Origin: a virus
Taxonomy: Duplodnaviria; Heunggongvirae; Uroviricota; Caudoviricetes
Length of the DNA stretch: 33,848 nt
Strand: one strand, 5' to 3'
IMG/VR virus record: IMGVR_UViG_2925877141_000002
Below, piece after piece: positions 1,641-21,096 of the stretch. Below the pieces are notes generated by a model. That model had not been told where the DNA came from and made no database searches. It saw only the letters and a list, made by a program, of their open reading frames with translations. The position numbers and the translations under genes are program-made. Positions within the stretch are counted from its first letter, which is position 1, and each line of letters begins with the position of its first letter.

Positions 1641-3919
1641 TTAAGAATCAGTCTGACTCGGGATCAGTTTTTGCCAGATAGCTGAAACGTATTTTGCCTG
1701 GTAACGGGCGTCATCAAGTGCATTATGGCGCTCACCTTCGAATGGAATAGCCGTTCTGGCATCGAAGTCTATGGCTTTCCCCAGCTCAACGATTGTGCGT
1801 ACATCGCGATCGTTGTAGTAACGCCACGGGCAGGGGATCCCCTGCCGTTCGTATGAACGGCGCAAAATCGTGTTGTCGAAGTTGGCTCCATTTCCCCAGA
1901 CATGAACAAAAAATTCACCGGAGTTTTCGTCGATAAATTCCCGCAATTGTAACAGTGCATCATCTAACGGGATTTCATCGGTCATAATGGCAGATTGCGC
2001 TTCGCGTGATTGCTTAAGCCACCATTTAATGGTGTCCCGATCAATGACTCCGCCAGCAGTTTCCAGATCGATAGTCTTACTAAATTCCGGTCCCATATCT
2101 CCGGTTTGCGGATCGAAAAATATTGCACCTATTGAGATGATCGGGGCATCAGGATTTTTTCCCATGGTTTCAAGGTCGATCATTAGATGGTCACACGTCC
2201 TGCTGGTGGATGTGATTTCGTGATGACCGTTCACCTTAATTGGGTGATCTGCCGTCTCGCCAGTTTCATTATCGCTATTGTGATGCTGATTGCCGCCAGT
2301 GTTCTCCTTGTGTGGATGTTCAGCGCCTTCCATTTCCTCCGGATCATCTTCCTGAACTTCAACCTGATACTCTTCATCGAATGTTTCTTGGTATGTTGCG
2401 TCGCCCATCACCGCGCCACAATCAGGGCAGTTGCCGCCGCCGGTCTGACCGCAGGCGGTGCAGGCTTTTTCCACTTCCTGTTGCGCCACTGGTTCAGGCT
2501 GTTTCGTTTCTGGCTCGTTTTGTAACGCATTTGGACTGTTTTGTTCCGCTTTTTGGTAGTTCCGTTCCGATTCATGCTGGTTCTGGTTCACAGAATCGCG
2601 GGTCTGGATCCCCTTAACCCATTTCGGATCATTCGGGTCACTAATCCCTTCAACAAATTCACCACGTGATGCAGCAAGCAACTTATCGGCGTCAGGCTGG
2701 CTGATATTGGCTGCCTGCATAATTTTGTTTACTTCGTCAGCGGTAACTTTTATCGGCTCTGGTTGTTCTGAATCTTCAGCGGTATCTACATTTTGCGGTA
2801 AGCCCGTGTATGTGCCATTTTTTCGGGCAAAATATTCTTCTTTTGTGATTTCAGTGGCGCCAGCAGCCAGTGCCTTATCCAGACCAGAAAGTTTGTTTGC
2901 GCGACCGTATTTTTCTCCGTCCTTATCTGCGAAGAGGAAATAGAACGGCCCCTCACGCTCTACAGATGGTTCAGCTTCCGGCGCGGTTTCATTTTTTGGG
3001 ATATCAGATACCTCAGTTTCCACTGCATCAGTTTGTGTTTCTGATGACTGGAGAACAGCAACAGTGCCCAGGTCTGTTTCTTCATTCTCAAACACGCCCT
3101 TTGTCGTCAGGTATTCGCAGATATATTTGTTCAGTGCTACGGGATCTTTGTGAATGTCGATCGGACGCTCACGGACAAGGCCAAAAATAGTTTGGCGGTC
3201 GTAGCGAAGGGCATCAGGCTGTTTGCGTATTGATGCCGAGATACGCTTCCAGTCTTCGCGGTCGTTGTCGATAACTTCTTTTTTTGCCCAGCGATGGATG
3301 CTGCCGTCAATGTTTCCGGCATCCACATCACCAGGCCAGAGAGCGTAGGCCAGTTCGTCATCCAGTGTTTTCCATGTCTGCTTGTATTCGCGATGAATGG
3401 CAGCAATGACCGAGCTCTTTTTTCCTGTTGAATTTTCAGTGTACTGTTGATTGGCTCTGGCGCGGGCGAGATCAACAACAGACGTGTATTTTCCGGTTTC
3501 CTTGCGTTCACCTTCGCGACGTTTTTTCCAGATGCGCATCTCTGCCTGAATTTCGGGCCATTTAGCACCAGGAATACATTTATGCTTAACCCACCCAATG
3601 GCGTGCAACTTAAGCTCCGGATACATGGCGTTAACTTCTGGCATTTTCATCAACGCTTCAACGATATGTCCGTCGAATGTTGCCATGTCTTCCTGCAACA
3701 ATTCCTGTGCGCTAATAACCATATCAACGGTGATGTTTTCACATGTGTCGAACTTAACCATGACAGCGTTCTGTACTTCAGGGGCCAGCTTGTCAAAAGT
3801 GACGTTCATCGGATCGGATTCAGTCTCAACCGGGACAAAAGAAGCAGACTCCTCATCCCAGCGGTTTTCCTGCATATATTCAGCATCCCATGAATCGAGG
3901 GCAGGGCGGGGTATGCCAG
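1641..3919 (-). pseudogene. Prophage exonuclease, C-terminal 758 codons (gene split by IS2); DnaQ-like DEDDh 3'-5' exonuclease domain at C-terminus
   Basis: ORF 1641..3947 runs into the IS2 left inverted repeat, so its first 11 codons are IS/TSD-derived. C-terminal motifs IDLETMG, VWGNGANFD, HNALDDA match DEDDh exonucleases. Confidence 0.75.
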
Positions 3920-4010
3920 TAGACTGGCCCCCTGAATCTCCAGACAACCAATATCACTTAAATAAGTGATAGTCTTAATACTAGTTTTTAGACTAGTCAT
4001 TGGAGAACAG

Positions 4011-4442
4011 ATGATTGATGTCTTAGGGCCGGAGAAACGCAGACGGCGTACCACACAGGAAAAGATCGCAATTGTTCAGCAGAGCTTTGAACCGGGGATG
4101 ACGGTCTCCCTCGTTGCCCGGCAACATGGTGTAGCAGCCAGCCAGTTATTTCTCTGGCGTAAGCAATACCAGGAAGGAAGTCTTACTGCTGTCGCCGCCG
4201 GAGAACAGGTTGTTCCTGCCTCTGAACTTGCTGCCGCCATGAAGCAGATTAAAGAACTCCAGCGCCTGCTCGGCAAGAAAACGATGGAAAATGAACTCCT
4301 CAAAGAAGCCGTTGAATATGGACGGGCAAAAAAGTGGATAGCGCACGCGCCCTTATTGCCCGGGATGGGGAGTAAGCTTAGTCAGCCGTTGTCTCCGGGT
4401 GTCGCGTGCGCAGTTGCACGTCATTCTCAGACGAACCGATGA
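4011..4442 (+). CDS. insC: IS2 OrfA (InsC) variant with altered, extended C-terminus
   Basis: Starts [14 protein letters not shown] with GGAGAACAG RBS; ends ...PGMGSKLSQ... instead of canonical ...PGDGE because of the 1-bp deletion. Confidence 0.8.
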
Positions 4443-5238
4443 CTGGATGGATGGCCGCCGCAGTCGTCACACTGATGATACGGATGTGCTTCTCCGTATA
4501 CACCATGTTATCGGAGAGCTGCCCACGTATGGTTATCGTCGGGTATGGGCGCTGCTTCGCAGACAGGCAGAACTTGATGGTATGCCTGCGATCAATGCCA
4601 AACGTGTTTACCGGATCATGCGCCAGAATGCGCTGTTGCTTGAGCGAAAACCTGCTGTACCGCCATCGAAACGGGCACATACAGGCAGAGTGGCCGTGAA
4701 AGAAAGCAATCAGCGATGGTGCTCTGACGGGTTCGAGTTCTGCTGTGATAACGGAGAGAGACTGCGTGTCACGTTCGCGCTGGACTGCTGTGATCGTGAG
4801 GCACTGCACTGGGCGGTCACTACCGGCGGCTTCAACAGTGAAACAGTACAGGACGTCATGCTGGGAGCGGTGGAACGCCGCTTCGGCAACGATCTTCCGT
4901 CGTCTCCAGTGGAGTGGCTGACGGATAATGGTTCATGCTACCGGGCTAATGAAACACGCCAGTTCGCCCGGATGTTGGGACTTGAACCGAAGAACACGGC
5001 GGTGCGGAGTCCGGAGAGTAACGGAATAGCAGAGAGCTTCGTGAAAACGATAAAGCGTGACTACATCAGTATCATGCCCAAACCAGACGGGTTAACGGCA
5101 GCAAAGAACCTTGCAGAGGCGTTCGAGCATTATAACGAATGGCATCCGCATAGTGCGCTGGGTTATCGCTCGCCACGGGAATATCTGCGGCAGCGGGCTT
5201 GTAATGGGTTAAGTGATAACAGATGTCTGGAAATATAG
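4399..5238 (+). CDS. insD: IS2 OrfB (InsD) transposase body, DDE domain; no longer reachable by -1 frameshift from OrfA
   Basis: 279-aa ORF identical to the distal InsD of copy B; the frame entered by -1 slippage at the A6G site (4328-4334) hits TAA at about 4371. Confidence 0.75.
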
Positions 5239-5249
5239 GGGCAAATCCA

Positions 5250-5447
5250 GCCAGGTTTATCCTCGCAGACAATAAATTTATAAGCGCAGTCCTGAGCAGC
5301 CGGATAATGTTCCAGGAATTGCCAGTGAAATTTTGCTCGAGCACGGCGTTCGTCGCCAGCTTCAATGGCTGTGGCTACAGCCACAGCGCCTTCTTCCCTT
5401 GTTGCCAGTTCGTCAGGAATAGCGACGCAAATAAAGACTTTACTCAT
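5250..5447 (-). pseudogene. Prophage exonuclease, N-terminal 66 codons separated from the rest of the gene by IS2
   Basis: ORF starting at 5447 (MSKVFICVAIPDE...) reads in frame through 5250; removing IS2 and one TSD copy joins it in frame to 3914..1641, restoring an 823-aa protein. Confidence 0.7.
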
Positions 5448-5540
5448 TTTGTTTTAACCTCATGACAGATTTAAGGATGAACAAATCCCTGCCATTGCTG
5501 GCATATAAGAATGAAACCGGATATTTATTACGGAACTGTT

Positions 5541-5732
5541 TTAAAGACCTGCCGGGATTTCGATATTATTCTGGTGAATAACTTTATCGACCGGGTAACA
5601 GTTACCGGGAATTTTCTGTTCGGTTGCTGCAGTCATACACTCCTGCATTGTCCTGTGAACACTGACTGCAATATCAACTGGCACTCCGGAAACAAGAAAA
5701 ACTGTCAGAACAAGCGCAAATGCTGAATTCAT
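5541..5732 (-). CDS. ydfD: YdfD-like small protein with N-terminal hydrophobic segment (reported prophage lysis protein)
   Basis: 63 aa from ATG at 5732 (MNSAFALVLTVFLVSG...), AAGGA RBS; ATGA overlap with dicB stop. Match to Qin YdfD is from recall. Confidence 0.7.
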   Translation of the reverse strand: MNSAFALVLTVFLVSGVPVDIAVSVHRTMQECMTAATEQKIPGNCYPVDKVIHQNNIEIPAGL

Positions 5733-5917
5733 TGTGCACATCCTTTTGGCATCAGACGTAAACGAGCCAGCATTGAAACAATGCATATTTTATTTAATAG
5801 CTCCCGTTCTTGTTTTCTCTTGTTAATGGCATCTTCAGTAAATACAGGGTTACTGATAGTGACACCAATTTCAAAACAACCTTCAGACGTATTAACGTTT
5901 GGTAATAACGTTTTCAT
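5729..5917 (-). CDS. dicB: Cell division inhibitor DicB
   Basis: 62 aa MKTLLPNVNTSEGCFEIGV...MLARLRLMPKGCAQ; GAGGA RBS 7 nt upstream; downstream of the DicF sequence as in the Qin dicB operon. Confidence 0.8.
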   Translation of the reverse strand: MKTLLPNVNTSEGCFEIGVTISNPVFTEDAINKRKQERELLNKICIVSMLARLRLMPKGCAQ

Positions 5918-6086
5918 TATCGCGTCCTCAACAATGAATTTTGTGATGCAGTGCCTGGTGCCTCCAAGTGACGTTAACCAGTTAACAATTAACGTCGGAT
6001 ACAGAGAATCCACCCATAACACTGTTTTTGGTTTTAACTGTTCCGCGTGCGCTTAGCCGCATTCACCGCATCACAAAATTCACTTT

Positions 6087-6144
6087 AAAAACGGCGGCAG
6101 AGCAGTCACGGAGTAAAACTGATACCGCCAAACGTCACCAGAAA
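6087..6144 (-). ncRNA. dicF: DicF small RNA with 3' stem-loop and U tract
   Basis: Reverse complement of 6092..6144 reads UUUCUGGUGACGUUUGGCGGUAUCAGUUUUACUCCGUGACUGCUCUGCCGCCG followed by UUUUU; matches DicF as recalled; sits between ydfC-like and dicB. Confidence 0.8.
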
Positions 6145-6213
6145 ATTGATAACAGAGGGCGTTGCAGCGGGGTTGTCACTTAAGCGTATGGTCAACCTGA
6201 CAACTCGGTGTCC

Positions 6214-6399
6214 TCAACGGGGAAGGAATAACCCCGCCATACTTACCGCCGCGCCATTTTGCGGGTTGCCACAACCGGAAGCGCACGGTCGAATTAAATT
6301 TAACGACACCGTACAGTGAGACGAACTTCGCCGTGCGCTTTCGTGTTGTGTGCCTGCTTTTAACCACGTCAGGCGAGGTGGTATCCTTAAAATCACCAC
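6214..6399 (-). CDS. Hypothetical small protein in the ydfC position
   Basis: 61-aa ORF with GTG start and no clear RBS; position only. Confidence 0.3.
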   Translation of the reverse strand: MVILRIPPRLTWLKAGTQHESARRSSSHCTVSLNLIRPCASGCGNPQNGAAVSMAGLFLPR

Positions 6400-6403
6400 A
6401 GTT

Positions 6404-6979
6404 TTAAGGATTCATTAAGCAATGTCGCAACCACCAATAAATCCGCTTAAGAACATGAAAATTGATTACTGGTATAAAGCGCTTACAGTTGTTGGCGCTG
6501 CGTTGTTTGTCTTTAATGGAACGTCTTTTTTTGACAGATATCCCGTTGTTCCATTGGGTTTTTTGTCCTCCGGCATCTTTTTTATTGGTTTGGGGGAGTG
6601 GATTAATCACCCTCTCAAAGTGAGATTTATTGGCCCTGGAGTTTGGACTCGTGGATATAATCGTTCTTCGTGCGCACTCGGTATCATCTTCGACATACTT
6701 GGTTGTTTCCTGATTGTTACAGGAGTCGTCAAGTTCTTCTGATGTAAAACCGCAAATGGGGCACGTAACGGGAATTTTGAAAAGCGTTTCTCCGGGTTCC
6801 AGAACAAAATTTTCTGCGGTCTGATTTTGCTTCTCATATTTGTGCTCCGCGTCATTGTGAGAGCACATTCTTATTCTGAGTGCCTGTTTAAACTCACTGA
6901 AGCTGAGAGCTTCTTCGCCTTCGGCAAGGCCTTCGAAGTATTCTTCGTAAGCCTTTTCCATGATTGTGTCGAAATCCAT
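6404..6979 (-). CDS. YdfB-like protein, extended (191 codons), with CPICGF zinc-ribbon-like motif; distal two thirds may be a shadow ORF
   Basis: Begins MDFDTIMEKAYEEYFEGLAEGEEAL... coupled to the ydfA stop; distal part is K/N/R-rich and exactly antisense to the plus-strand membrane ORF. Confidence 0.4.
   Translation of the reverse strand: MDFDTIMEKAYEEYFEGLAEGEEALSFSEFKQALRIRMCSHNDAEHKYEKQNQTAENFVLEPGETLFKIPVTCPICGFTSEELDDSCNNQETTKYVEDDTECARRTIISTSPNSRANKSHFERVINPLPQTNKKDAGGQKTQWNNGISVKKRRSIKDKQRSANNCKRFIPVINFHVLKRIYWWLRHCLMNP
6422..6742 (+). CDS. Hypothetical small membrane protein (three predicted TM segments), antisense to the dicB operon
   Basis: 106 aa with hydrophobic stretches ALTVVGAALFVF, GFLSSGIFFIGLG, ALGIIFDILGCFLIVTGVV; AAGGA RBS 11 nt upstream of ATG, lying in the 3' arm of a perfect 10-bp hairpin (6383-6392 / 6402-6411). 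Confidence 0.45.
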   Translation: MSQPPINPLKNMKIDYWYKALTVVGAALFVFNGTSFFDRYPVVPLGFLSSGIFFIGLGEWINHPLKVRFIGPGVWTRGYNRSSCALGIIFDILGCFLIVTGVVKFF

Positions 6980-6980
6980 A

Positions 6981-7136
6981 TCACTCACCTGAGTTTCTTT
7001 CCAGCCAGCGACGGGCACCATTTTCGGTTTTAAACGTTTTGCTTTTGGTATACGTCATCGCGGTGAACGTGCCGTCCTGGTTGGGGAACACGCCACATAC
7101 CAGAGATTCGCTGTTGCCAAGATCGATAGTATCCAT
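6981..7136 (-). CDS. ydfA: YdfA-like small protein
   Basis: 51 aa MDTIDLGNSESLVCGVFPNQDGTFTAMTYTKSKTFKTENGARRWLERNSGE; first gene downstream of the dicA-proximal operator. Confidence 0.7.
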   Translation of the reverse strand: MDTIDLGNSESLVCGVFPNQDGTFTAMTYTKSKTFKTENGARRWLERNSGE

Positions 7137-7250
7137 GCTGACCTCATTTCCCCTTAACGCCGGGGTAGCGGAACTGTTTGCTGAGAACACCGTGCGGTGT
7201 CTTGATGGAAAGTAATTTAGAATAACCTAACATTAGAGGCAAGTGTTTTT

Positions 7251-7268
7251 TGTTAGATTAGTCTAACA
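7251..7268. promoter_or_regulatory. Palindromic operator TGTTAGA-N4-TCTAACA upstream of ydfA (candidate DicA site controlling the dicB operon)
   Basis: Perfect 7-bp inverted repeat; the same half-sites recur in the dicA-dicC intergenic region. Confidence 0.5.
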
Positions 7269-7304
7269 AAAAGAGTGGGCGCAACTAATCACTTGAAAAG
7301 AATG

Positions 7305-7712
7305 TTATTTTATTGATTTATTTTTACGCGCTTTAAGCATTTCTTCGAAGAGTTTGTTGAAGTTTTCTACTCTTGCGCGCATTTCAGACAGCAAGGCTTC
7401 CTGCTCGGAAGATGGAAGAGCATCGAATAATTCGATCAATTCTTTGTGGTTGGGAGTTAGCTCTGTTTCCACATGAAGTTCTTGTGCAGGCACTGGTGCC
7501 TTGTCTTCGTCACCAAACATTAGCCATGTAGGTGAGCACTTCAGAGCATCCGCTAAAGCAAACAATCGTTTTCCGACTGGCTGGGTTTCGTCTCTTTCCC
7601 ATTGTGAAATTGTGACGTGAGCAACTCCAGCGAGGCGCGCAGCTTCTCGTTGTGTTAAGCGTAATTCTTTTCGTCGCGCCAGAACTCGCTGGCCTAGGGT
7701 TCTTGTATCCAT
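7305..7712 (-). CDS. dicA: XRE-family HTH repressor DicA (CI-like)
   Basis: 135 aa MDTRTLGQRVLARRKELRLTQREAARLAGVAHVTISQWERDETQP...; divergent from dicC. Confidence 0.9.
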   Translation of the reverse strand: MDTRTLGQRVLARRKELRLTQREAARLAGVAHVTISQWERDETQPVGKRLFALADALKCSPTWLMFGDEDKAPVPAQELHVETELTPNHKELIELFDALPSSEQEALLSEMRARVENFNKLFEEMLKARKNKSIK

Positions 7713-7761
7713 AGTTAGGTAATTCTAATTTTTCTTGACTTAGATATCCCGCGCACAATAA

Positions 7762-7779
7762 TGTTAGAAAAGTCTAACA
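7762..7779. promoter_or_regulatory. Palindromic operator TGTTAGA-N4-TCTAACA in the dicA/dicC divergent promoter region
   Basis: Perfect inverted repeat between the divergent starts of dicA (7712) and dicC (7793). Confidence 0.5.
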
Positions 7780-7792
7780 AGAGGGGGCTTTG

Positions 7793-8020
7793 ATGCTTAA
7801 AGTTGACGCAATTACTTTTTTTGGCAGCAAAACAAAGCTTGCCAATGCCGCAGGAGTGAGACTGGCAAGTGTTGCTGCTTGGGGGATACTGGTTCCTGAA
7901 GGTCGCGCGATGCGTCTACAGGAGGCATCTGGCGGGGAGCTTCTGTATGATCCCAAGGTTTATGACGAATATCGTAAGACGAAGCGGGCGGGGCGGTTGA
8001 ACAATGAAAATCACTCCTGA
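7793..8020 (+). CDS. dicC: Cro-like regulator DicC
   Basis: MLKVDAITFFGSKTKLANAAGVRLASVAAWG...RKTKRAGRLNNENHS; GAGGGGG RBS 5 nt upstream. Confidence 0.8.
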   Translation: MLKVDAITFFGSKTKLANAAGVRLASVAAWGILVPEGRAMRLQEASGGELLYDPKVYDEYRKTKRAGRLNNENHS

Positions 8021-8525
8021 ACAGGCTCGTGAGGCTCTGGATGCCTGGATATGTCGACCAGGAATGACACAGGAGCAGGCGACGATATTAATCACTGAAG
8101 CATTCTGGGCTTTGAAAGAGCGCCCGAACATCGATGTTCAGCGTGTCACAGATGAAGGTGGCGCGGTTGATCAGCGAGCGCTTGGCGTTAATCGAGTGAA
8201 GATATTCGAACGCTGGAAGGCTATCGACACCAGGGATAAGCGTGAAAAGTTCACGGCGCTAGTGCCTGCAATTATGGAGGCTATCCGGATTAATGATTTC
8301 AGGTTGTATCGTGAAATTAGTGACGGAAAAAGCATCACGTACATGATCGCCGGGTTAAACAAAGAATATGGCGATGTGGTGGAGTCCGGACTGCTTTTTG
8401 CTGATCCTGCCGTAGTGGATCGTGAAACTGACGAACTTATAGAAAAAGCAATTGCTTTCAAACTTGCGTATCGACAGCAATACCAACAAAAAGCTGGATG
8501 GAATTATGAGCCTTCTTTTTGCTGA
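8004..8525 (+). CDS. YdaT-family phage early protein (CII-position)
   Basis: 173 aa, translationally coupled to dicC (overlap 8004-8020); N-terminus and LPAI motif resemble Rac YdaT as recalled. Confidence 0.5.
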   Translation: MKITPEQAREALDAWICRPGMTQEQATILITEAFWALKERPNIDVQRVTDEGGAVDQRALGVNRVKIFERWKAIDTRDKREKFTALVPAIMEAIRINDFRLYREISDGKSITYMIAGLNKEYGDVVESGLLFADPAVVDRETDELIEKAIAFKLAYRQQYQQKAGWNYEPSFC

Positions 8526-9471
8526 ACGCCCACTGGTTATAAACACACAGCTTGCGATGAAGATTGGCTTAAATGAAGCCATTGTGTTGCAGCAGTTGCA
8601 TTACTGGTTGAGAGATACCAATTCCGGCATGGAATGTGATGGTGTTCGCTGGATTTACAACACAACGGAACAATGGCTGGAACAGTTCCCATTCTGGTCA
8701 GAGTCAACGTTAAAGCGCGCGTTTGCAAGTCTGAAAACGCTGGGGCTTTTGCGTTGTGAAAAGCTCAATAAATCAAAGCGCGATATGACCAATTTCTACA
8801 CGATCAACTATGGGAGCGAGCTTTTAGATGGTGGCAAATTGAACGAATCCATCGGTTCAAAATGCGCCGCTCCATCAGGTCAAAATGACACGATGGAAGA
8901 GGTCAAAATGAAACGCTCCATTGGTTCAAAACGACCCAATGTCATCGGGTCAAAATGGCCTGATGATCTTACAGAGAATACAACAGAGATTACTACAGAG
9001 AATAAAAACACTTTTCGTCCGGAAGCTTCGCAACCGGACCCGCAGACCGCTGAACAGGATTTTTTAATCCGGAACCCCGACGCGGTTGTGTTTAGTGCGA
9101 AAAAACGCCAGTGGGGTAGCAGGGAGGATTTGGCGTGTGCGCAGTGGATTTGGGGGCGGATCGTGAACCTTTACGAACAGGCTGCCAGCGACGATGGAGA
9201 GATCATGCGACCAAAAGAGCCTAACTGGACAGCCTGGGCCAATGACGTGCGCACAATGCGGATGCTGGATGGCAGAAGCCACAGACAAATTTGCGAAATG
9301 TTTGGTCGGGTACAGCGAGATCCATTCTGGGTAAAAAACATCATGAGCCCGTCAAAACTCCGCGAAAAATGGGACGAACTGGTCATCCGCTTGGGACGTT
9401 CACCTGTACAGCGTTGTGTGAATCATATTTCTGAACCGGATACAGAAATTCCGCCTGGTTTCAGGGGATAA
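8506..9471 (+). CDS. Phage replication initiator (O-like), contains internal iteron array
   Basis: 321 aa from ATG 8506; N-terminal winged-helix-like region; five direct repeats inside the gene encode the repeated peptide SIGSK. Confidence 0.6.
   Translation: MSLLFAERPLVINTQLAMKIGLNEAIVLQQLHYWLRDTNSGMECDGVRWIYNTTEQWLEQFPFWSESTLKRAFASLKTLGLLRCEKLNKSKRDMTNFYTINYGSELLDGGKLNESIGSKCAAPSGQNDTMEEVKMKRSIGSKRPNVIGSKWPDDLTENTTEITTENKNTFRPEASQPDPQTAEQDFLIRNPDAVVFSAKKRQWGSREDLACAQWIWGRIVNLYEQAASDDGEIMRPKEPNWTAWANDVRTMRMLDGRSHRQICEMFGRVQRDPFWVKNIMSPSKLREKWDELVIRLGRSPVQRCVNHISEPDTEIPPGFRG
8848..8958. repeat. Five direct iterons (core GGT(T)CAAAA(T/C)G) at 23-24 bp spacing followed by A+T-rich ACAGAGA repeats: candidate origin of replication
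   Basis: Cores at 8855, 8878, 8901, 8924, 8948; ori-within-initiator layout as in lambda O. Confidence 0.6.
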
Positions 9472-9511
9472 GTGTTGATTTCAGGTCATGAGGTAATTTT
9501 AAGGAGGACTT

Positions 9512-9934
9512 GTGGCAAAAGTTTTTACACAGGAAGAGCGGGAAAAAATTAAAGAGCAGGTGGTCGAACTTGTGCGCCAGAGCGGTCGCGAGACATTACG
9601 ACAGTTGGAAGCTAAAACAGGTGCGACAAGATATCTGATGAGCATTCTTGCCAGAGAGCTGGTTGCCAGTGGTTATGTATACAACTCCGGCTACGGGTTA
9701 TTCCCGTCTGAACAGGCACGAAAGGACTGGCAAAATGCCCGCAAAAAACTCTCTAGGGCGAAGGTGAAGAAACCCGCTGTGGTTGATCCGGACCTTATCT
9801 GGTCACTACCTGATGGAGAAATACGTCGCTACGACAGTCGTCTAAACATAATCTGTCGCGAGTGCCGGAAGAGTGAAGCTATGCAGCGTGTACTGGCTTT
9901 CTATCAGGGTAATTTTCAGGAGGCGGTACTGTGA
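9512..9934 (+). CDS. Hypothetical early-region protein
   Basis: 140-aa ORF, GTG start with AAGGAGG RBS 4 nt upstream; no recognisable helicase-loader motifs. Confidence 0.5.
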   Translation: MAKVFTQEEREKIKEQVVELVRQSGRETLRQLEAKTGATRYLMSILARELVASGYVYNSGYGLFPSEQARKDWQNARKKLSRAKVKKPAVVDPDLIWSLPDGEIRRYDSRLNIICRECRKSEAMQRVLAFYQGNFQEAVL

Positions 9935-10171
9935 GTGAAATTAGCTATCAGGCTTCAATTACCGCTGGCATTCGCATCAAAGGAGAGGAGCATGGAAATA
10001 AAACCAGAGGATTAGTTAAGCAATATCGTTTTATTTCCGATAAAAGAGGATGACCCTCGTAATCAGGTTAATTTTCTTTATGAGCCATCGGAAAGACCAT
10101 ATTGCCATCACGCTTCTGTCCGGGTTGACGAAAAAGAGCGTCAGGTCCGCTGTAAAATCTGAGGTGCAGTT

Positions 10172-10348
10172 GTGGAGCCATTTGACTGGATGCTCTCTGT
10201 GGCGAAAAGAGAAACCAGACTGGCAGATGATGTAAGGCTCTTGCGCCAGGAGGAACGGGAAAGACGAAAAAATATAGAAAAGCTAATTCAGATTGAGCGT
10301 AACGGGAAAGCGCGGATACGCAGGGTGACAAAATCCAGAACTGAATAA
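10172..10348 (+). CDS. Hypothetical small charged protein
   Basis: 58 codons from GTG with GAGGTG RBS; overlaps a 61-aa ORF in another frame, so uncertain. Confidence 0.3.
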   Translation: MEPFDWMLSVAKRETRLADDVRLLRQEERERRKNIEKLIQIERNGKARIRRVTKSRTE

Positions 10349-10418
10349 TTAAATTTAGCACTGTTAAAAATTTAATCCTTAACCGGAGGGATTTCTGCAC
10401 CCTCAGAACATCAGGAGG

Positions 10419-10434
10419 CCGCCCGAAAGGGCGG
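10419..10434 (+). promoter_or_regulatory. GC hairpin (CCGCCC-GAAA-GGGCGG) between SD AGGAGG (10413-10418) and ATG 10442
   Basis: Perfect 6-bp stem with GAAA loop; unfolded spacing is 23 nt, folded about 6 nt. Confidence 0.4.
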
Positions 10435-10441
10435 TAGTTAA

Positions 10442-10579
10442 ATGCGAAAGTTTAAAATAATTATTGAAACGGGAATAGCCGGTGGAGATTTCGAGGATGA
10501 ATTCGAAGTGGATAATGATGCGACGCCTGATGAAATACATGACGAAGCAAAAGATATTTTCTTTAACTACTGCAATTAA
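10442..10579 (+). CDS. Small acidic protein, 45 aa
   Basis: MRKFKIIIETGIAGGDFEDEFEVDNDATPDEIHDEAKDIFFNYCN; D/E-rich. Confidence 0.4.
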   Translation: MRKFKIIIETGIAGGDFEDEFEVDNDATPDEIHDEAKDIFFNYCN

Positions 10580-10616
10580 TCATATCACGAAATAAAAGAC
10601 GAAGAGGAAGAACAAA

Positions 10617-10793
10617 ATGGCTGATTTTGGTTCAACTAAATACAACGTCGGTTTTGAAGAATGGCATGAACTGTTAATGGACTATGCAGAGTTACGTGGT
10701 GGCAGTGCTGCTGATGCTGAAGCATGGCGTGATGATTATGAAGCAGGAAAAACTCCGGTCGAAGCATATTGTGATGAGTGGGGCGATGAATGA
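10617..10793 (+). CDS. Small acidic protein, 58 aa
   Basis: MADFGSTKYNVGFEEWHELLMDYAELRGGSAADAEAWRDDYEAGKTPVEAYCDEWGDE; GAGGAAG RBS 6 nt upstream; 17 D/E against 5 K/R/H. Confidence 0.45.
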   Translation: MADFGSTKYNVGFEEWHELLMDYAELRGGSAADAEAWRDDYEAGKTPVEAYCDEWGDE

Positions 10794-11275
10794 GCGAGGT
10801 TAATTATCAGGAAGGGCATGAAACGGCGGGGCAAGCAAAAACAGTGGCATGGCGATATCGCTACGTGAAAAAAAGGCGTTACGGACTTTCAGGGGAAGTA
10901 GTGATCTGGTGACTGGAAATATGTACCGAAAAAAGAGGATTGTAACGATAGGCCGAACTATGAAATTCAGGCCTTATTCACTGCCCCGCCAGTCCCGGTT
11001 ACATCAGAAGAACTGGTTAAAGCTGTGCACTTTTATGAACAACTAAAACGCGAAAATCCACCAGCATCCGGAAACCTGATTACAGGTTCCCAGATAAGGC
11101 AATGAGCTACCTGGCGCAGAACGGGCTGATAAGTATGGGGAATGTTTTACGATGAATATTTAGACTAAAGAGTTTGTAACGCTATGTAAGTGATTTTTTC
11201 TGGTTTAGATATTTATATGTCCGGCTAAATTGAGGTGTGTTTAAATGTTATTGCACATTGATTGTAGGGGGAATA

Positions 11276-11455
11276 ATGAAAAACGCATTGCAGTTTTTGT
11301 TTGTTGCGTTCTGGTTGTTCGCATCATGTATGCCCATCATCTTCACAGCAAGGTATATGGAAAAAGTTGATGTTTTGATATTAATATTTGGATATATAAA
11401 TGCCCTTTTTTTAGGGGTGTTCATGGCGGTCATGTGCATTGAATACTGGCGGTAA
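11276..11455 (+). CDS. Small hydrophobic membrane protein
   Basis: 59 aa MKNALQFLFVAFWLFASCMPIIF...; GGGGGA RBS; A+T-rich context. Confidence 0.4.
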   Translation: MKNALQFLFVAFWLFASCMPIIFTARYMEKVDVLILIFGYINALFLGVFMAVMCIEYWR

Positions 11456-11712
11456 ATACAGCGAACTCCATTGGTTTAGTTGGATATTTACTGTGCTGGA
11501 CAAAACGGTTTGCGGGGAAATCTTAGTTAAGTAGAATGACTGCGGGTGCTTGAGGCTATCTGCCTCGGGCACGAACACCAACGGCAGGTAGAGAAAAGCC
11601 CCAGTTAACATTACGCGTCCTGCAAGACGCTTAACATTAATCTGAGGCCAATTTCATGCTAGACACATGTAGGTTAGCCTCTTACGTGCCGAAAGGCAAG
11701 GAGAAGCAGGCT

Positions 11713-11868
11713 ATGAAGCAGCAAAAGGCGATGTTAATCGCCCTGATCGTCATCTGTTTAACCGTCATAGTGACGGCACTGGTAACGAGGAAAGACCTCT
11801 GCGAGGTACGAATCCGAACCGGCCAGACGGAGGTCGCTGTCTTCACAGCTTACGAACCTGAGGAGTAA
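11713..11868 (+). CDS. hokD: Hok-family type I toxin (HokD/RelF-like)
   Basis: 51 aa MKQQKAMLIALIVICLTVIVTALVTRKDLCEVRIRTGQTEVAVFTAYEPEE; AAGGAGAAG RBS; same frame is open upstream to 11656; terminator downstream. Confidence 0.85.
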   Translation: MKQQKAMLIALIVICLTVIVTALVTRKDLCEVRIRTGQTEVAVFTAYEPEE

Positions 11869-11938
11869 GAGACCCGGCGAGGGAGAAATCCCTCGCCACC
11901 TCTGATGTGGCAGGCATCCTCAACGCACCCGCACTTAA

Positions 11939-11957
11939 CCCGCTTCGGCGGGTTTTT
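11939..11957 (+). terminator. Rho-independent terminator after hok
   Basis: CCCGC-TTCG-GCGGG followed by TTTTTGTTTTT. Confidence 0.7.
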
Positions 11958-12084
11958 GTTTTTATTTTCAACGCGTTTGAAGTTCTGGACGGTGCCGGAA
12001 TAGAATCAAAAATACTTAAGTAGCGCGCAGGGATAAGAGGGATGGTCCCTTAAAGGGGAGAGCTAATTATCCGGAAGGATTCTG

Positions 12085-12336
12085 ATGATGAACATCGAAG
12101 AACTGCGTAAAATTTTTTGTGAAGATGGCCTCTATGCTGTGTGCGTTGAAAATGGAAATCTTGTTAGTCATTACCGCATTATGTGTTTGCGAAAGAATGG
12201 GGCTGCGTTAATTAATTTTGTGGATGGTCGAGTGACAGACGGATTTATCTTGCGCGAAGGTGAGTTTGTCACTTCATTACAGGCACTGAAAGAGATCGGA
12301 ATAAAAGCAGGCTTTTCAGCTTTTGCAGAAGAATAA
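12085..12336 (+). CDS. rem: Rem-like protein
   Basis: 83 aa MMNIEELRKIFCEDGLYAVCVENGNLVSHYRIMCLRKNGAAL...; GGAAGGA RBS; position after hok as in Qin. Confidence 0.6.
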   Translation: MMNIEELRKIFCEDGLYAVCVENGNLVSHYRIMCLRKNGAALINFVDGRVTDGFILREGEFVTSLQALKEIGIKAGFSAFAEE

Positions 12337-12402
12337 ACTCATCTACAATCTTGCGCGGGGCTGAACTCCCGCTGAGTAACACCGTGCCACCGGAGAAAAC
12401 CG

Positions 12403-12681
12403 ATGGCACGCAACGTAAAATATTACAATTCTGATAATTCGCCCGTTCTTGCCTGCACGCACGAGCGGTATTCTCACGCATTCAAGTCTGAATGGTTCCA
12501 GCACCCTCCATGCACTGAAGAGCAGGCTGAATGGATAATTCAGTGTTACCGCAGGCGCGGATACGAGGTTAAGAAAGCTCTTAGTCTCGACTACCGTCAC
12601 TGGATAATCTCAGTCAGATTGCCTTACTCCGAACGCCCACCGCGTCCGTCCCGTACATTCCAGCAACGCATCTGGAGGTAA
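12403..12681 (+). CDS. Hypothetical protein
   Basis: 92-aa ORF with GGAGAAAA RBS; stop abuts the DUF968 gene start. Confidence 0.5.
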   Translation: MARNVKYYNSDNSPVLACTHERYSHAFKSEWFQHPPCTEEQAEWIIQCYRRRGYEVKKALSLDYRHWIISVRLPYSERPPRPSRTFQQRIWR

Positions 12682-12682
12682 C

Positions 12683-13732
12683 GTGCGGGTATTACTTCGA
12701 CCTGTTCTGGTACCGGAACTCGGGCTGGTGGTCGTTAAGCCGGGCCGTGAATCCATGCCGGTATTCCACAATACCCGGGTACTGGTGGAGCCGGAACCGA
12801 AAAGCATGCGTAATCTGCCGTCCGGGGTCGTTCCTGCCGTTCGCCAGCCGCTGGTGGAAGACAAAACATTGCTGCCGTTTTTCAGTAACGCACGGGTAAT
12901 TCGTGCTGCTGGTGGTGCTGGTGCATTGTCTGACTGGCTGTTGCGCCATATTAAATCCTGCCAGTGGCCACACGGCGATTATCATCACAGCGAAACCGTT
13001 ATTCACCGTTATGGTACCGGCGCAATGGTGTTGTGCTGGCACTGCGACAACCAGCTGCGTGACCAGACATCCGAATCACTCGAGCAACTTGCTCATCAAA
13101 ACCTGTCAGCATGGATGATTGACGTCATCGGTCACGCAATAAGCGGTACGCAGGAGCGTGAATTATCTCTGGCTGAATTATCCTGGTGGGCGGTCCGCAA
13201 TCAGGTGGCGGACGCGCTACCGGAAGTGGTATTACGTCGCTCGCTGGGATTACCAGCGGAAAAAAACTGCTCGGTGTACCGCGAAAGCGACATCGTACCG
13301 GGAGAGCAGACCGCCACCAGCATATTGAAACAGCGCACAAAAAATCTTGCACCGTTGCCTCACGCCCACCAGCAACAAAACCCATCACAGGAAAAGACGG
13401 TGGTAAGCATCACCGTTGATCCAGAGTCTCCGGAATCTTTCATGAAGCTGCCTAAACGTCACCGTTGGGTTAAGGAGAAATACACACGCTGGGTTAAGAC
13501 ACAGCCGTGTGCTTGCTGCGGTATGCCAGCCGACGATCCGCATCATCTGATTGGTCACGGGCAGGGCGGAATGGGAACCAAAGCACATGATCTCTTTGTG
13601 TTGCCTTTGTGCAGAAAGCATCACGACGAGTTGCATACGGATACCGTGGCATTTGAAGAGAAGTATGGCTCCCAACTGGAGCTGATTTTTCGATTTATCG
13701 ATCGCGCGCTGGCAATTGGTGTGCTGGCCTAA
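12683..13732 (+). CDS. ydfU: DUF968 protein (YdfU-like) with C-terminal HNH-like Cys/His cluster, in the NinG/Rap position
   Basis: 349 aa; C-terminus [43 protein letters not shown]; directly upstream of Q. Confidence 0.7.
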
Positions 13733-13749
13733 TTTTGTGGAGTAAGTTG

Positions 13750-14127
13750 ATGCGTGATATTCAGATGGTTCTTGAGCGTTGGGGGGCATGGGCGGCTAAT
13801 AATCATGAAGATGTGACCTGGTCGTCCATTGCCGCCGGTTTTAAGGGATTAATTCCTTCAAAAGTAAGATCTCGTCCGCAATGCTGTGACGATGACGCGA
13901 TGATCATTTGTGAATGTATGGCTCGCCTGAAAAAAAACAACAGCGATTTACATGATTTATTGGTGGACTATTATGTCGGCGGCATGACTTTTATGGCGCT
14001 TGCACGTAAGCATGGGCGATCTGATTGTTGGGTTGGCAGGATGCTCCAGAAAGCTGAGGGCGTAGTGGAGGGCATGCTGATGGTGTTGGATCTCCGATTG
14101 GAGATGGATGCTGATTGTTCGAAATAA
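13750..14127 (+). CDS. Late-gene antiterminator Q (QuuD-like family)
   Basis: [76 protein letters not shown]...; resembles DLP12 QuuD as recalled. Confidence 0.8.
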
Positions 14128-14139
14128 TTAAAGGAAAAG

Positions 14140-14168
14140 TTGCTGTCTGATTTTCATTAGTCTAACAT
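14140..14168 (+). promoter_or_regulatory. Candidate late promoter PR' (TTGCTG-17-TAACAT) just downstream of Q
   Basis: Sigma70-like hexamers with 17-bp spacing, about 60-85 bp upstream of tR'-like terminator. Confidence 0.3.
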
Positions 14169-14226
14169 TTTAAATGTTGGAATCGCAACGTAGTTATTAT
14201 CATATAACAGCTTGTTTCCTGATTTA

Positions 14227-14254
14227 GCCAGCCTCCCCAAAGGCTGGTTTTTTT
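14227..14254 (+). terminator. Intrinsic terminator (tR'-like) downstream of Q
   Basis: GCCAGCC-TCCCCAAA-GGCTGG stem followed by TTTTTTT. Confidence 0.7.
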
Positions 14255-14282
14255 CTAATAAGTATCATTTCGGGTGGGGATT

Positions 14283-14807
14283 TTATTGTTTAACCCATAA
14301 TAGTTCATTGACATTGAATCCCAACTTTTGAGCGGTACGCACATAGTCTGCTTTTACATTATCTGGAATAGTTTGGGTCCTTGCCAGAATCCATAGGTAT
14401 TCTCTGTTCGGACCACTGACAAGAGCATACTTATACTCATCATCCAGCTTGATTACATTATAGCCACCATAGAAGGGGCCAAAAAACGAAACTTTCAACG
14501 CTGCAGTTTTAGTATCTCCAGTAAAGTATGCTTTACCTTCGCTCTCGCTCCATTTGTTTTTCGTTGGATCGTATCCACGGTTAAGTACGCGAATCCCTCC
14601 GTCGTTCCGTTTTTCATAAGTAGCGCTGACCTGTTCCAGACCACGTTCGAACCAGTTCTCGAGGCGAGCTATTTCATACCATTTTCCGAGGTAGCGGTTG
14701 GCGTCAAAATTTGTAATCGGCTGCACACCTTTAGGTGGTGTCGGGGCCTTACATGCTATAAGAGTGAAAGAGAGTGCAATGCCAGTCAACACAGGCCATA
14801 ACTTCAT
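14283..14807 (-). CDS. Outer-membrane lipocalin lipoprotein (Blc-like); prophage cargo
   Basis: 174 aa with lipoprotein signal (...LIAC), lipocalin motifs GKWYEIAR, FFGPFYGGYNVI; resembles chromosomal Blc as recalled. Confidence 0.85.
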   Translation of the reverse strand: MKLWPVLTGIALSFTLIACKAPTPPKGVQPITNFDANRYLGKWYEIARLENWFERGLEQVSATYEKRNDGGIRVLNRGYDPTKNKWSESEGKAYFTGDTKTAALKVSFFGPFYGGYNVIKLDDEYKYALVSGPNREYLWILARTQTIPDNVKADYVRTAQKLGFNVNELLWVKQ

Positions 14808-14999
14808 AATAAATCCTGTACTTTTGATAGTTGAGAGTAAGTATGAAAGATAGATGAGTACGACCGATCACTTAAAGAACTTTCCTACTATATTAGGAAT
14901 AGTCAATAACAGAAAAATTGTCAGTGATGAAGCCAGAAAGGCAATTTAGTCCGTGCACTACAAAGTTTATGTGTTAATGAATTAGTCAAGGGGGAGGAA

Positions 15000-15959
15000 A
15001 TGATAAAAAAACCTGTGATTGGGATCAGCGGTTGTTTGGGCGGTTCTGCTGTTCGTTTTGATGGTGGTCACAAAAGAGATGACTTTTTAATGGACAAATT
15101 AGTGGAATGGGTAACATTCAGACCAGTATGTCCGGAAATGGCTATAGGGCTGCCAGTTCCGCGTCCTGCTCTACGACTTGTGCGCTCGAAGCAAGGAAAT
15201 ATACGGATGTGTTTCAGCCACGACCAGAATGAGGATGTGACAGAGAGAATGACAGAGTTTAGTCGTTCTTATATGGACAAATTAAAGGATGTATCGGGGT
15301 TTGTGGTTTGTGCTAAATCTCCCAGCTGTGGCATGGAGCGCGTGCGTGTCTATGATGAAAATGGTAATCGAGGTCGTAAAGATGGAGTGGGACTATTTAC
15401 GAGCACTTTGATGGAAAAGTTTTCCTGGCTACCGGTTGAAGAGGATGGGCGATTACATGATCCAGTGCTTCGTGAGAATTTTATTGAAAGAGTTTTTGCT
15501 TTGCATGAGCTCAATCACCTTTACAAGGAGAAATTATCAAGAAGAGAGTTATTAGCTTTTCATAGTCGTTATAAGCTTCAGTTGTTGGCGCATAGCCAGG
15601 CAGGCTATAAAGATATGGGACCATTTGTGGCTGCAATACACGAGTGGGCGGACCTTGAATCATACTTTGAGGTGTATCGTGATAATCTGATGGCGATTCT
15701 CAGAAAACCAGCATCACGTAAAAATCACACGAATGTGCTGATGCATATACAGGGGTATTTTAGTAATTACTTAAGTACACGCCAGCGTAAAGAGTTGAGC
15801 GAGGTTATACTTAACTATCGCTTTGGCACATTGCCTCTTCTTGCGCCGTTGACTCTGCTGAAGCATTATCTGGGTGAGTATCCTAATGATTACTTGCTTA
15901 CACAGAATTACTTCGATCCCTATCCGGAAGAACTGGCTCTAAGACTGATGGTGAATTAA
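15000..15959 (+). CDS. DUF523-DUF1722 fusion protein (TudS-like Cys-rich N-domain plus YbgA-like C-domain)
   Basis: 319 aa; N-terminus [12 protein letters not shown]...; strong GGGGGAGG RBS. Confidence 0.65.
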
Positions 15960-16166
15960 CTGTATGCGATATCATCTGAAAGTGATGAGTTCCTGTATGC
16001 AGGATATTTACAATCGTAAAAACTACGCTATGATGCTCATAGTGTCAGTTTTTATAAAAATCCTGTTCACGCTAATAGACTGGCCCCCTGAATCTCCAGA
16101 CAACCAATATCACTTAAATAAGTGATAGTCTTAATACTAGTTTTTAGACTAGTCATTGGAGAACAG

Positions 16167-16532
16167 ATGATTGATGTCTTAGGGCCGGAGAAACGCAGAC
16201 GGCGTACCACACAGGAAAAGATCGCAATTGTTCAGCAGAGCTTTGAACCGGGGATGACGGTCTCCCTCGTTGCCCGGCAACATGGTGTAGCAGCCAGCCA
16301 GTTATTTCTCTGGCGTAAGCAATACCAGGAAGGAAGTCTTACTGCTGTCGCCGCCGGAGAACAGGTTGTTCCTGCCTCTGAACTTGCTGCCGCCATGAAG
16401 CAGATTAAAGAACTCCAGCGCCTGCTCGGCAAGAAAACGATGGAAAATGAACTCCTCAAAGAAGCCGTTGAATATGGACGGGCAAAAAAGTGGATAGCGC
16501 ACGCGCCCTTATTGCCCGGGGATGGGGAGTAA
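16167..16532 (+). CDS. insC: IS2 OrfA (InsC)
   Basis: 121 aa [56 protein letters not shown]... Confidence 0.85.
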
Positions 16533-17395
16533 GCTTAGTCAGCCGTTGTCTCCGGGTGTCGCGTGCGCAGTTGCACGTCATTCTCAGACGAACCGATGAC
16601 TGGATGGATGGCCGCCGCAGTCGTCACACTGATGATACGGATGTGCTTCTCCGTATACACCATGTTATCGGAGAGCTGCCCACGTATGGTTATCGTCGGG
16701 TATGGGCGCTGCTTCGCAGACAGGCAGAACTTGATGGTATGCCTGCGATCAATGCCAAACGTGTTTACCGGATCATGCGCCAGAATGCGCTGTTGCTTGA
16801 GCGAAAACCTGCTGTACCGCCATCGAAACGGGCACATACAGGCAGAGTGGCCGTGAAAGAAAGCAATCAGCGATGGTGCTCTGACGGGTTCGAGTTCTGC
16901 TGTGATAACGGAGAGAGACTGCGTGTCACGTTCGCGCTGGACTGCTGTGATCGTGAGGCACTGCACTGGGCGGTCACTACCGGCGGCTTCAACAGTGAAA
17001 CAGTACAGGACGTCATGCTGGGAGCGGTGGAACGCCGCTTCGGCAACGATCTTCCGTCGTCTCCAGTGGAGTGGCTGACGGATAATGGTTCATGCTACCG
17101 GGCTAATGAAACACGCCAGTTCGCCCGGATGTTGGGACTTGAACCGAAGAACACGGCGGTGCGGAGTCCGGAGAGTAACGGAATAGCAGAGAGCTTCGTG
17201 AAAACGATAAAGCGTGACTACATCAGTATCATGCCCAAACCAGACGGGTTAACGGCAGCAAAGAACCTTGCAGAGGCGTTCGAGCATTATAACGAATGGC
17301 ATCCGCATAGTGCGCTGGGTTATCGCTCGCCACGGGAATATCTGCGGCAGCGGGCTTGTAATGGGTTAAGTGATAACAGATGTCTGGAAATATAG
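16490..17395 (+). CDS. insD: IS2 OrfB (InsD), normally expressed as OrfAB by -1 frameshift
   Basis: 301 aa starting [22 protein letters not shown] (GTG immediately after A6G). Confidence 0.85.
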
Positions 17396-17701
17396 GGGCA
17401 AATCCAGCTAAAGAAAACATTGAGATGCAATTTAATGTTGGTAAACATACCAGCCCCAAACGATTTTATTCAATCTGTTTTTATATGAAGATATTTCAAG
17501 TGAATATTGAGAGTATATAATATTATTATTGCACGCAGCTATTATAATATAACAGATTAGTTTAATGATTTGTTTTTTGTGAGTTAAACACATGGTTTTA
17601 TAGTTGTGATGCAATGAGATTTTCCTTATTGTTGAACTGGCGAATATTGATTTTCCACCTATACTTACCTGGTGTAACCCCAATGATATCAGGTGGATAA
17701 T

Positions 17702-20520: not shown

Positions 20521-20883
20521 ATTAATATTAAATCGGATTATTTTTAGCGCTGAATGTGAAATTTAAATAAAAAGGACTCTTCCATGAGTCAAAATCCTTG
20601 AAATCTTAAGGGTAAGATAAAAGGTCATTAGACAGAATGACACGTTTTATTAATAAATAAAGCTATTGTTTCATTCGTGTGTTTTTCTTTACAAAAGTAA
20701 TCCTTGCTATGGTTGGTTAATCATGCGTTAATGGTGTTCTGGTTTGTTACAAAATTATCTGAAGCAGTCATTGTTATAATTTTATTATTTGTACCTCTTG
20801 AGATTTCCTTGTTGGTTTTTCTCTCTGATATTTTTTTTCGGACCATTCTGCCCAAGGGCTAACTTCTTCAAAAGGTAATAATG

Positions 20884-21096
20884 ATGTCTAACAAAATGAC
20901 TGGTTTAGTGAAATGGTTTAACCCTGAAAAAGGTTTTGGTTTCATCACGCCGAAAGATGGTAGCAAAGATGTGTTTGTCCATTTCTCAGCTATTCAGAGC
21001 AACGATTTCAAAACGTTAACTGAGAATCAGGAAGTCGAATTTGGTATTGAGAACGGACCTAAAGGCCCCGCGGCTGTTCATGTTGTGGCACTTTGA
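20884..21096 (+). CDS. cspI: CspA-family cold-shock protein (CspI/CspB-like)
   Basis: 70 aa [38 protein letters not shown]...; long A+T-rich leader 20521-20880. Confidence 0.9.

Follow-up and report, generated by a model that had tools for sequence, protein, structure and literature searches.

Sequential insertion of two IS2 elements into a Qin-like cryptic prophage, and a one-base difference between the copies

The window, by which we mean the whole 33,848-nucleotide stretch of viral DNA that was analysed, carries two copies of IS2 in direct orientation on the + strand, separated by 10,826 bp. We consider it very probable that this arrangement reflects sequential IS2 insertions, after which the left copy (copy A), as recorded, lost one G and became non-autonomous, the pair being a substrate for recombination. 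Each insertion was a separate event in which canonical IS2 (IS3 family, copy-out-paste-in) entered a Qin-like cryptic prophage. For the missing G, we regard a biological loss and an assembly error as about equally probable. The observation is correct but ordinary: it is of an already known kind, represents ordinary genome wear, and matters little beyond annotation.

Two IS2 copies differing by one base

Copy A (3920-5249, + strand, 1330 bp) interrupts an exonuclease gene in the orientation opposite to that of the gene, and copy B (16076-17406, + strand, 1331 bp), which is intact, lies within the spacer between a ybgA-like gene and a gene for an AraC-type regulator. A repeat search and BLASTN of both regions gave 1332/1333 identities between the copies, with one gap and no mismatch. 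The sole difference is CCCGGG at 4359-4364 in copy A versus CCCGGGG at 16515-16521 in copy B, so that the G run reads GGG at 4362-4364 and GGGG at 16518-16521, respectively. The missing G corresponds to IS2 position 443 and lies 28 nt downstream of the A6G slippery heptamer. An earlier note on this DNA had described two directly repeated IS2 copies around 10.8 kb, with copy A one G short downstream of A6G. The repeat search, BLASTN and the sequence itself confirmed the repeats, the shortened G run was found as described, and a check for overlooked differences between the copies revealed none besides the one G.

Both copies have the size and identity that define IS2 (IS3 family, IS2 group; ~1331 bp, at least 95% nucleotide identity to the reference). 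Copy B matches IS2A of E. coli K-12 MG1655 at 1330 of 1331 positions and encodes the same InsC (121 aa) and InsD (301 aa) proteins; its only change is synonymous and located at IS2 position 606. The inverted repeats of IS2 are imperfect, with a left repeat (IRL) of 42 bp that begins TAGACTGG and a right repeat (IRR) of 41 bp that finishes CA-3' (PMC3299598); both ends are present in both copies and are identical to those of K-12 IS2A. Each copy is flanked by its own 5-bp target duplication, GCCAG for copy A (left 3915-3919, right 5250-5254) and GCTAA for copy B (left 16071-16075, right 17407-17411). The length of the exact repeat (1.33 kb) and the matching 5-bp duplications exclude a chance match.

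Copy A inserted before copy B

In E. coli STEC005 both IS2 sites are empty, and GCCAG and GCTAA each occur there once. EcPNK006 and M23917 contain an intact 1331-bp, four-G IS2 at exactly site A, while site B is empty and has a single GCTAA. The earlier note had deduced independent insertion from the different duplications; the empty and filled sites in these three genomes demonstrate it directly. Judged by this sequence comparison, the relatives also show that copy A was inserted before copy B, and the two IS2 insertions can be dated relative to each other within one E. coli lineage. Copy A entered the exonuclease gene first, its intact form being common to close relatives. Copy B came later, in the spacer lying downstream of the ybgA-like gene, and is seen only in the immediate lineage of the window's strain. 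Copy A, as recorded, would later have lost one G from its GGGG run. Only IS movements separate the window from its close relatives.

A second public assembly, GCA_009925485.1, has an 11,030-bp contig (= 10,826 + 2 x 102) whose readable part matches the window at 100% identity, and we infer from the contig size only that the copy B configuration is present there as well. Exact-protein look-ups of the two ORFs that span the B junctions returned no match, and among complete RefSeq E. coli genomes none had the B junction in one piece and none had a three-G A junction.

Two direct IS2 copies whose outer ends (IRL of A, IRR of B) are intact would also be expected if the whole 13.5-kb unit (IS2, 10.8 kb, IS2) were a composite transposon that had arrived in one piece. 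However, the outer flanks differ (GCCAG versus GCTAA), each copy has its own matching duplication where a composite transposon would have one shared outer duplication, and the internal 10.8 kb is not foreign cargo but native prophage, found in collinear order and at 100% identity in relatives without one or both of the copies. The empty-site comparison refutes arrival as a unit, which we consider next to impossible.

The host prophage and the segment between the copies

The host element is a Qin-like cryptic lambdoid prophage between rspB and ydfJ that is already defective. At this site it carries a dicA/dicC-type immunity pair, dicB/DicF, hokD, rem, ydfU and Q, together with essD/rrrQ/rzpQ, cspI and pinQ. 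The assignment uses the annotation of 100%-identical sister loci, Rfam matches to DicF, sok and the cspA leader, and collinearity with K-12 Qin. With no terminase and only a truncated portal gene, the prophage is defective. The exonuclease gene (- strand), which encodes a Pfam Rv2179c-like 3'-5' exonuclease domain and is intact in STEC005 (2472 nt), is cut by copy A into a 3' part at 1641-3919 and a 5' part at 5250-5447. No tandem repeats were found in the tail-fibre region.

As annotated from the 100%-identical sister loci, the 10,826-bp segment between the copies (5250-16075) holds the 5' end of the exonuclease gene, ydfD, dicB, DicF (6092-6143, - strand, Rfam), ydfA/ydfB, genes for a cI-like repressor and a cro-like protein, a ydaT-like gene, O, DUF977, hokD/sok (sok at 11544-11718, Rfam), rem, ydfU, Q, a lipocalin gene and the ybgA-like gene. 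This agrees with the immunity, replication, hok and Q region claimed previously, represented by the cI/cro-like pair, O, hokD/sok and Q, and adds dicB and DicF.

RecA-dependent recombination between the direct 1.33-kb repeats could delete 12,156 or 12,157 bp. Such a deletion between the copies is a potential event whose product has not been observed: a synthetic query joining the left flank of A, IS2 and the right flank of B did not detect the recombined single-IS2 form in 5,426 complete E. coli genomes, where no record covers both flanks and the best matches end at the IS2 end. The 12.16-kb segment, with dicB, DicF, hokD and the immunity, replication and Q genes, can be viewed as at risk of IS-mediated loss, a loss that would cost little since the Qin-like remnant is already defective.

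Consequence of the missing G for the reading frames

The transposase of IS2 is made through a -1 shift at A6G, OrfA acts as a repressor at the IRL promoter, IRR serves as the donor end, and transposition proceeds through a figure-of-eight and a minicircle (PMC3219604, PMC3299598). Copy B has the corresponding overlapping frames, 0 and -1, at A6G. Its orfA (InsC; 16167-16532, + strand) encodes 121 aa, as seen by translation, K-12 identity and Pfam HTH_Tnp_1, and its orfB (InsD; 16490-17395, + strand) has 301 codons in the -1 frame with an rve domain, so that the A6G at 16484-16490 gives a 409-aa OrfAB.

This overlap is missing from copy A as recorded. There, orfA (4011-4442, + strand; Pfam HTH_Tnp_1, E = 3e-19) encodes 143 aa instead of 121, since the deletion takes the normal stop out of frame; the extended OrfA gains 22 residues and keeps the DNA-binding and dimerisation regions. 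The A6G heptamer is present by sequence at 4328-4334 (+ strand; role of the motif from PMC3219604), and the frame entered from it by a -1 shift (4334-4375, + strand) ends at a TAA (4373-4375). The earlier note had correctly predicted this stop, although translation places it after 13 codons rather than about 12. The residual orfB frame (4399-5238, + strand) comprises 279 codons from a GTG, is +1 relative to orfA, and retains intact catalytic domains (Pfam rve, rve_3 and HTH_21). With the -1 frame closed after 13 codons and the orfB body shifted to the +1 frame, copy A cannot produce the normal OrfAB transposase; the frame reasoning by which OrfAB had been denied to copy A as recorded therefore holds on translation.

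An RNA stem-loop is predicted just 3' of A6G at 16490-16576 in copy B and at the equivalent 4334-4419 in copy A (both + strand). The G run falls in its inner helix, where copy A loses one pair, and the modelled stability is -40.9 kcal/mol (z = -2.4) in copy B versus -36.8 (z = -1.7) in copy A.

Mutation or assembly error

Since the same-site copy has four Gs in both sister genomes, EcPNK006 and M23917, the deletion is either very recent or an assembly error, and the earlier note had likewise raised the possibility of an error. If it is an error of consensus or polishing in a multi-copy repeat, which we rate at slightly under an even chance, copy A is in reality intact and 1331 bp long, like its counterparts at this site in the sister genomes. 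Across ~32.5 kb the window and M23917 differ at no nucleotide other than the missing G, which falls inside a ~10-copy element, and repeats of this sort are where short-read polishing of long-read assemblies fails. Furthermore, the identical three-G call is frequent in GenBank-only Shigella assemblies, whose IS2 copies show further G/C-run deletions (at IS2 positions 9, 604, 629, 945, 1259 and 1323), and the allele is absent from Sanger-era pINV plasmids. It is also rare, with ~15 among 6,537 E. coli records, 11 among 3,375 plasmid records, and 29 contigs in a large protein collection. Against an error, however, copy B is error-free, and the window has no other indel relative to M23917 in the 594 homopolymer runs of at least 4 bases outside IS2, 205 of which have at least 5 bases. 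Moreover, reproduction of the three-G allele in three assemblies of one lineage indicates that it does arise biologically: MCJCHV-1, DS566-1 and DS566-2 have it at one pdeL-adjacent locus, as an inherited state.

The occurrence of multiple three-G copies per Shigella genome was considered as proof of transposition and rejected, since further G/C homopolymer deletions occur in these copies. This spread is doubtful in other respects too, as neighbouring genes are often split and the two records of this accession series that the plasmid search lists, CP026822 and CP026798, appear there with no RefSeq (NZ_) accession. We conclude that copy A is a probable pseudogene or an assembly error and is worth checking, and that single-base homopolymer differences in a multi-copy IS need flank-anchored reads before they are read biologically.

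Mobility of copy A

Both ends of copy A are intact. As an element that cannot make OrfAB it would be non-autonomous, moving only with the transposase of other IS2 copies. Supply in trans is plausible but probably inefficient, given the ~200-fold cis preference of IS911, a relative of IS2 (PMC5009743). Copy B, proposed previously as the source, is only one of ~10 possible transposase donors.

Could copy A be alive on its own? If tRNA-Pro slipped spontaneously by +1 at CCC-G (4359-4362), which is the very site of the deletion, OrfA residues 1-117 would be fused to the body of orfB, yielding a 408-aa OrfAB-like protein in which only a linker of 9-10 residues departs from the normal sequence. CCC-N sites favour +1 shifts, the deletion puts orfB in the +1 frame of orfA, the two frames stay open between ~4340 and 4442, and all domains are intact. 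Nevertheless, no stimulatory signal is evident, background shifts of this kind are normally well below 1%, and there is no sign of three-G copies spreading in reliable assemblies, the multi-copy cases being in error-prone ones; we consider activity by this route very unlikely. Independent occurrences of the same one-base change are found in a diverged IS2 lineage as well as on E. coli, E. fergusonii and Salmonella plasmids. A broader reading would make the GGGG/GGG run a recurrent, reversible off-switch, with copy A making only the extended OrfA repressor, restorable by slippage or by gene conversion from other IS2 copies, and perhaps leaking the 408-aa transposase through the +1 slip. To this, too, we assign only a very small probability.

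Comparison with known systems

K-12 IS2A (insC1/insD1) shares with copy B the terminal repeats, the 5-bp duplication and the A6G window. Unlike K-12 IS2A, copy A is without one G at IS2 position 443 and its orfB is unreachable by a -1 shift. Frameshifted IS2 copies in other genomes parallel copy A in this respect, for example the IS2 next to pdeL in MCJCHV-1/DS566, which has the same GGGG to GGG change, is 1330 bp long with an intact 5-bp duplication, and carries the NCBI annotation 'IS3 family transposase, frameshifted'. This IS2 represents a different sublineage, with 29 mismatches to copy A, and lies at an unrelated locus, indicating that its G loss arose independently.

The two direct 1.33-kb repeats, 12.16 kb from start to start, resemble IS-flanked segments that are lost by homologous recombination, although only the substrate is seen here, with no deletion product in the 5,426 complete E. 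coli genomes. The Qin prophage of K-12, which belongs to the same prophage family and occupies the same rspB-ydfJ site, also has IS2 damage in its int-xis-exonuclease arm, in the form of the IS2E remnant (ydfE, insD7, intQ). In K-12, however, the A site is empty and the remnant (IS2 positions 626-1331) lies elsewhere and in the opposite orientation, so that copy A cannot be the same insertion as IS2E, a possibility that we rejected. The K-12 remnant joins int (window position 1161) to the exonuclease gene (window position 3346) and thus represents a deletion that has already happened.

Structure and identity of the two IS2 copies

A repeat search of the window returned a single long direct repeat, interrupted by a one-base offset. 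Both of its members are canonical IS2 elements on the + strand: copy A spans 3920-5249 (1330 bp) and is flanked by GCCAG at 3915-3919 and 5250-5254, and copy B spans 16076-17406 (1331 bp) and is flanked by GCTAA at 16071-16075 and 17407-17411, with an interval of 10,826 bp separating the two. BLASTN of the two regions gave 1332/1333 identities with one gap and no mismatches; the sole difference is GGG at 4362-4364 in copy A versus GGGG at 16518-16521 in copy B. Thus, what an earlier note had read from the sequence about the two copies is correct in all its elements, and the further differences that it allowed for are absent. Copy B is identical to MG1655 IS2A (E. coli K-12) at 1330 of 1331 positions, the one change, at IS2 position 606, being synonymous, and its InsC (OrfA, 121 aa) and InsD (OrfB, 301 aa) are identical to the K-12 proteins. 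Pfam assigns HTH_Tnp_1 to OrfA, and HTH_21, rve, and rve_3 to OrfB.

Previous work has established that the IS2 inverted repeats are imperfect (41/42 bp), that OrfA is a repressor binding adjacent to the promoter just within IRL, that a -1 ribosomal frameshift at the A6G window yields low levels of the fused OrfAB transposase, and that transposition proceeds asymmetrically, IRR serving as the donor end and IRL as the recipient end, through a figure-of-eight and a minicircle (PMC3219604, PMC3299598).

Coding effect of the missing G

When copy B is translated with a -1 slip at A6G (16484-16490), the product is 108 + 301 = 409 aa long. The same slip in copy A (4328-4334) is followed by 13 residues and then TAA at 4373-4375. 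The zero frame of copy A misses the usual stop, producing an OrfA of 143 aa (4011-4442), while the body of orfB persists as a 279-codon ORF (4399-5238) in the +1 frame relative to orfA. Because of the early stop in the -1 frame and the displacement of orfB to the +1 frame, copy A as recorded is unable to make the canonical transposase, and the claim that no OrfAB can arise from it is borne out to that extent. As recorded, copy A reads as a frameshifted pseudogene, the sort that NCBI annotation already flags as a matter of routine. There is no positive support for the G run acting as a reversible switch, or for a +1 slip at CCC-G that would rescue a 408-aa transposase. The change lies downstream of the DNA-binding and dimerisation regions of OrfA (the latter at residues 73-100; PMC3219604), and both are unaltered.

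A strong stem-loop, a candidate stimulator of IS2 frameshifting, is predicted directly 3' of A6G at 16490-16576 in copy B and 4334-4419 in copy A. Its predicted folding energy is -40.9 kcal/mol (z = -2.4) in copy B versus -36.8 in copy A; the G run lies in the inner helix, and the missing G is predicted to remove one pair at a cost of ~4 kcal/mol.

Mutation or artefact

We consider the odds near even that the missing G is a real mutation rather than an artefact of assembling a multi-copy element. It is the sole nucleotide difference between the window and E. coli M23917, and it falls in an element of ~10 copies, beyond the reach of short-read polishing. However, all 594 homopolymer runs of at least 4 bases outside IS2 agree with M23917 (205 of these are at least 5 bases long), indicating that the assembly is clean. 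The three-G allele, at IS2 position 443, is rare (~15 of 6,537 E. coli records and 11 of 3,375 plasmid records; the exact 143-aa protein occurs in 29 contigs), and many of the public calls come from GenBank-only Shigella assemblies, in which the IS2 copies contain other G/C-run deletions and the genes next to them are frequently split. In Shigella virulence plasmids of the Sanger era, the run is four Gs long. Against an artefact, three assemblies (MCJCHV-1, DS566-1, and DS566-2) share the identical change at a single locus next to pdeL; the IS2 there, annotated 'frameshifted', has 29 differences from copy A. Its presence in a diverged IS2 in three assemblies indicates that the three-G change originates independently and is passed on.

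Many IS2 copies with the three-G allele are found in the Shigella CP0268xx assemblies (GenBank CP026824.1, CP026873.1), together with further single-base deletions in G/C runs, including the C5 run of IRL (IS2 position 9). These calls look like systematic homopolymer error, not a spreading variant.

Insertion history

M23917, EcPNK006, and STEC005 all lack copy B and match the 10.8-kb interval at 100% identity. In STEC005, site A (in the exonuclease gene) and site B (in the spacer between the ybgA-like and AraC-type genes) are both uninterrupted, with GCCAG and GCTAA each present once. Site B is also empty in EcPNK006 and M23917; at precisely site A, both carry an IS2 of 1331 bp that has four Gs and is flanked by the duplication seen around copy A. 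These stepwise states indicate that copy A is the older and was intact on landing, and that copy B is recent; loss of the G, if real, is recent too. Taken with the separate duplications, they uphold the proposal that the copies inserted independently and exclude a composite transposon moving as a unit.

Across ~32.5 kb, the window and M23917 show 0 mismatches and just one gap; the other differences in M23917 are an IS3 in the lipocalin gene (at 14636-14638, uninterrupted in the window) and the lack of copy B. At the nucleotide level, EcPNK006 is separated from the window by one mismatch and the copy A G. IS movements thus account for nearly everything that distinguishes these very close relatives from the window. 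The copy B junction was not found in any complete RefSeq E. coli genome. A draft assembly, GCA_009925485.1, appears to share the A-plus-B arrangement, since its 11,030-bp contig has exactly the length of the 10,826-bp interval with 102 bp of IS2 on either side; the part read is 100% identical to window 5148-15447.

Possible transposase supply in trans and potential recombination

Supply of transposase to copy A in trans is possible: Lewis et al. ascribed the background movement of a null IS2 construct to chromosomal IS2 copies (PMC3219604). Copy B was suggested as the source; as a helper it would be neither special nor efficient, given that the transposase of the related IS911 is ~200-fold more active in cis (PMC5009743) and that the sister genomes contain ~10 IS2 copies.

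If the two copies recombined homologously, 12,156 or 12,157 bp would be lost and one IS2 would remain, with GCCAG on one flank and GCTAA on the other; the three-G allele would be retained if the crossover fell rightward of IS2 position 443 (~2/3 of the element). This single-IS2 form, which the earlier note proposed looking for, is absent from 5,426 complete E. coli genomes. The bracketed segment does contain the immunity, replication, hok, and Q functions ascribed to it (a cI/cro-like pair, O, hokD/sok, and Q), as well as dicB and DicF. Rfam places DicF at 6092-6143 (-) and the sok antitoxin RNA of hokD at 11544-11718 (+). Between DicF and ydfB lies a 205-aa ORF (6404-7021, -) with no Pfam match, called in draft assemblies and unannotated in the RefSeq sister genomes; K-12 has the 72-aa ydfC in this interval.

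Comparison with other Qin-type prophages

Lying between rspB and ydfJ, the host element is a cryptic prophage of the Qin-like type that is already defective, with no terminase and a truncated portal gene. At ~22999-23260, a DUF1441 gene fragment abuts the portal gene fragment with no terminase large-subunit gene between them, a deletion that alone renders the prophage defective. Rfam also detects a cspA-type thermoregulator leader upstream of cspI (20726-21142, +). An uninterrupted tail-fibre ORF of 1261 aa (26584-30369, +) has an N-terminal phage_tail_N domain and a Peptidase_S74 chaperone domain near its C terminus; in the identical M23917 sequence, NCBI annotation breaks it into a pseudogene labelled truncated, a gap of 2 kb with no annotation, and a 267-aa protein of its own.

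Independent IS2 insertions, all oriented as copies A and B, occur nearby in other E. coli lineages (window 16076-18233): in the same ybgA-HTH spacer as copy B in strain 38 (duplication GTTGG) and J6 (AATAC), inside the AraC-type gene at 18233 in CB209 (ATTAT), and in dicB in an ST-131 strain (TGTTT). They may reflect a regional target preference of IS2 or selection on orientation.

The element is canonical IS2 and the prophage family is a known one, so the finding is nothing new in kind. K-12 Qin keeps just IS2 positions 626-1331 (IS2E/insD7), in the opposite orientation to copy A; as its site A is empty and the remnant lies elsewhere, copy A is not that element. The remnant joins int (window 1161) to the exonuclease gene (window 3346), so that an IS2-associated deletion has already removed xis and the greater part of the exonuclease gene from K-12.
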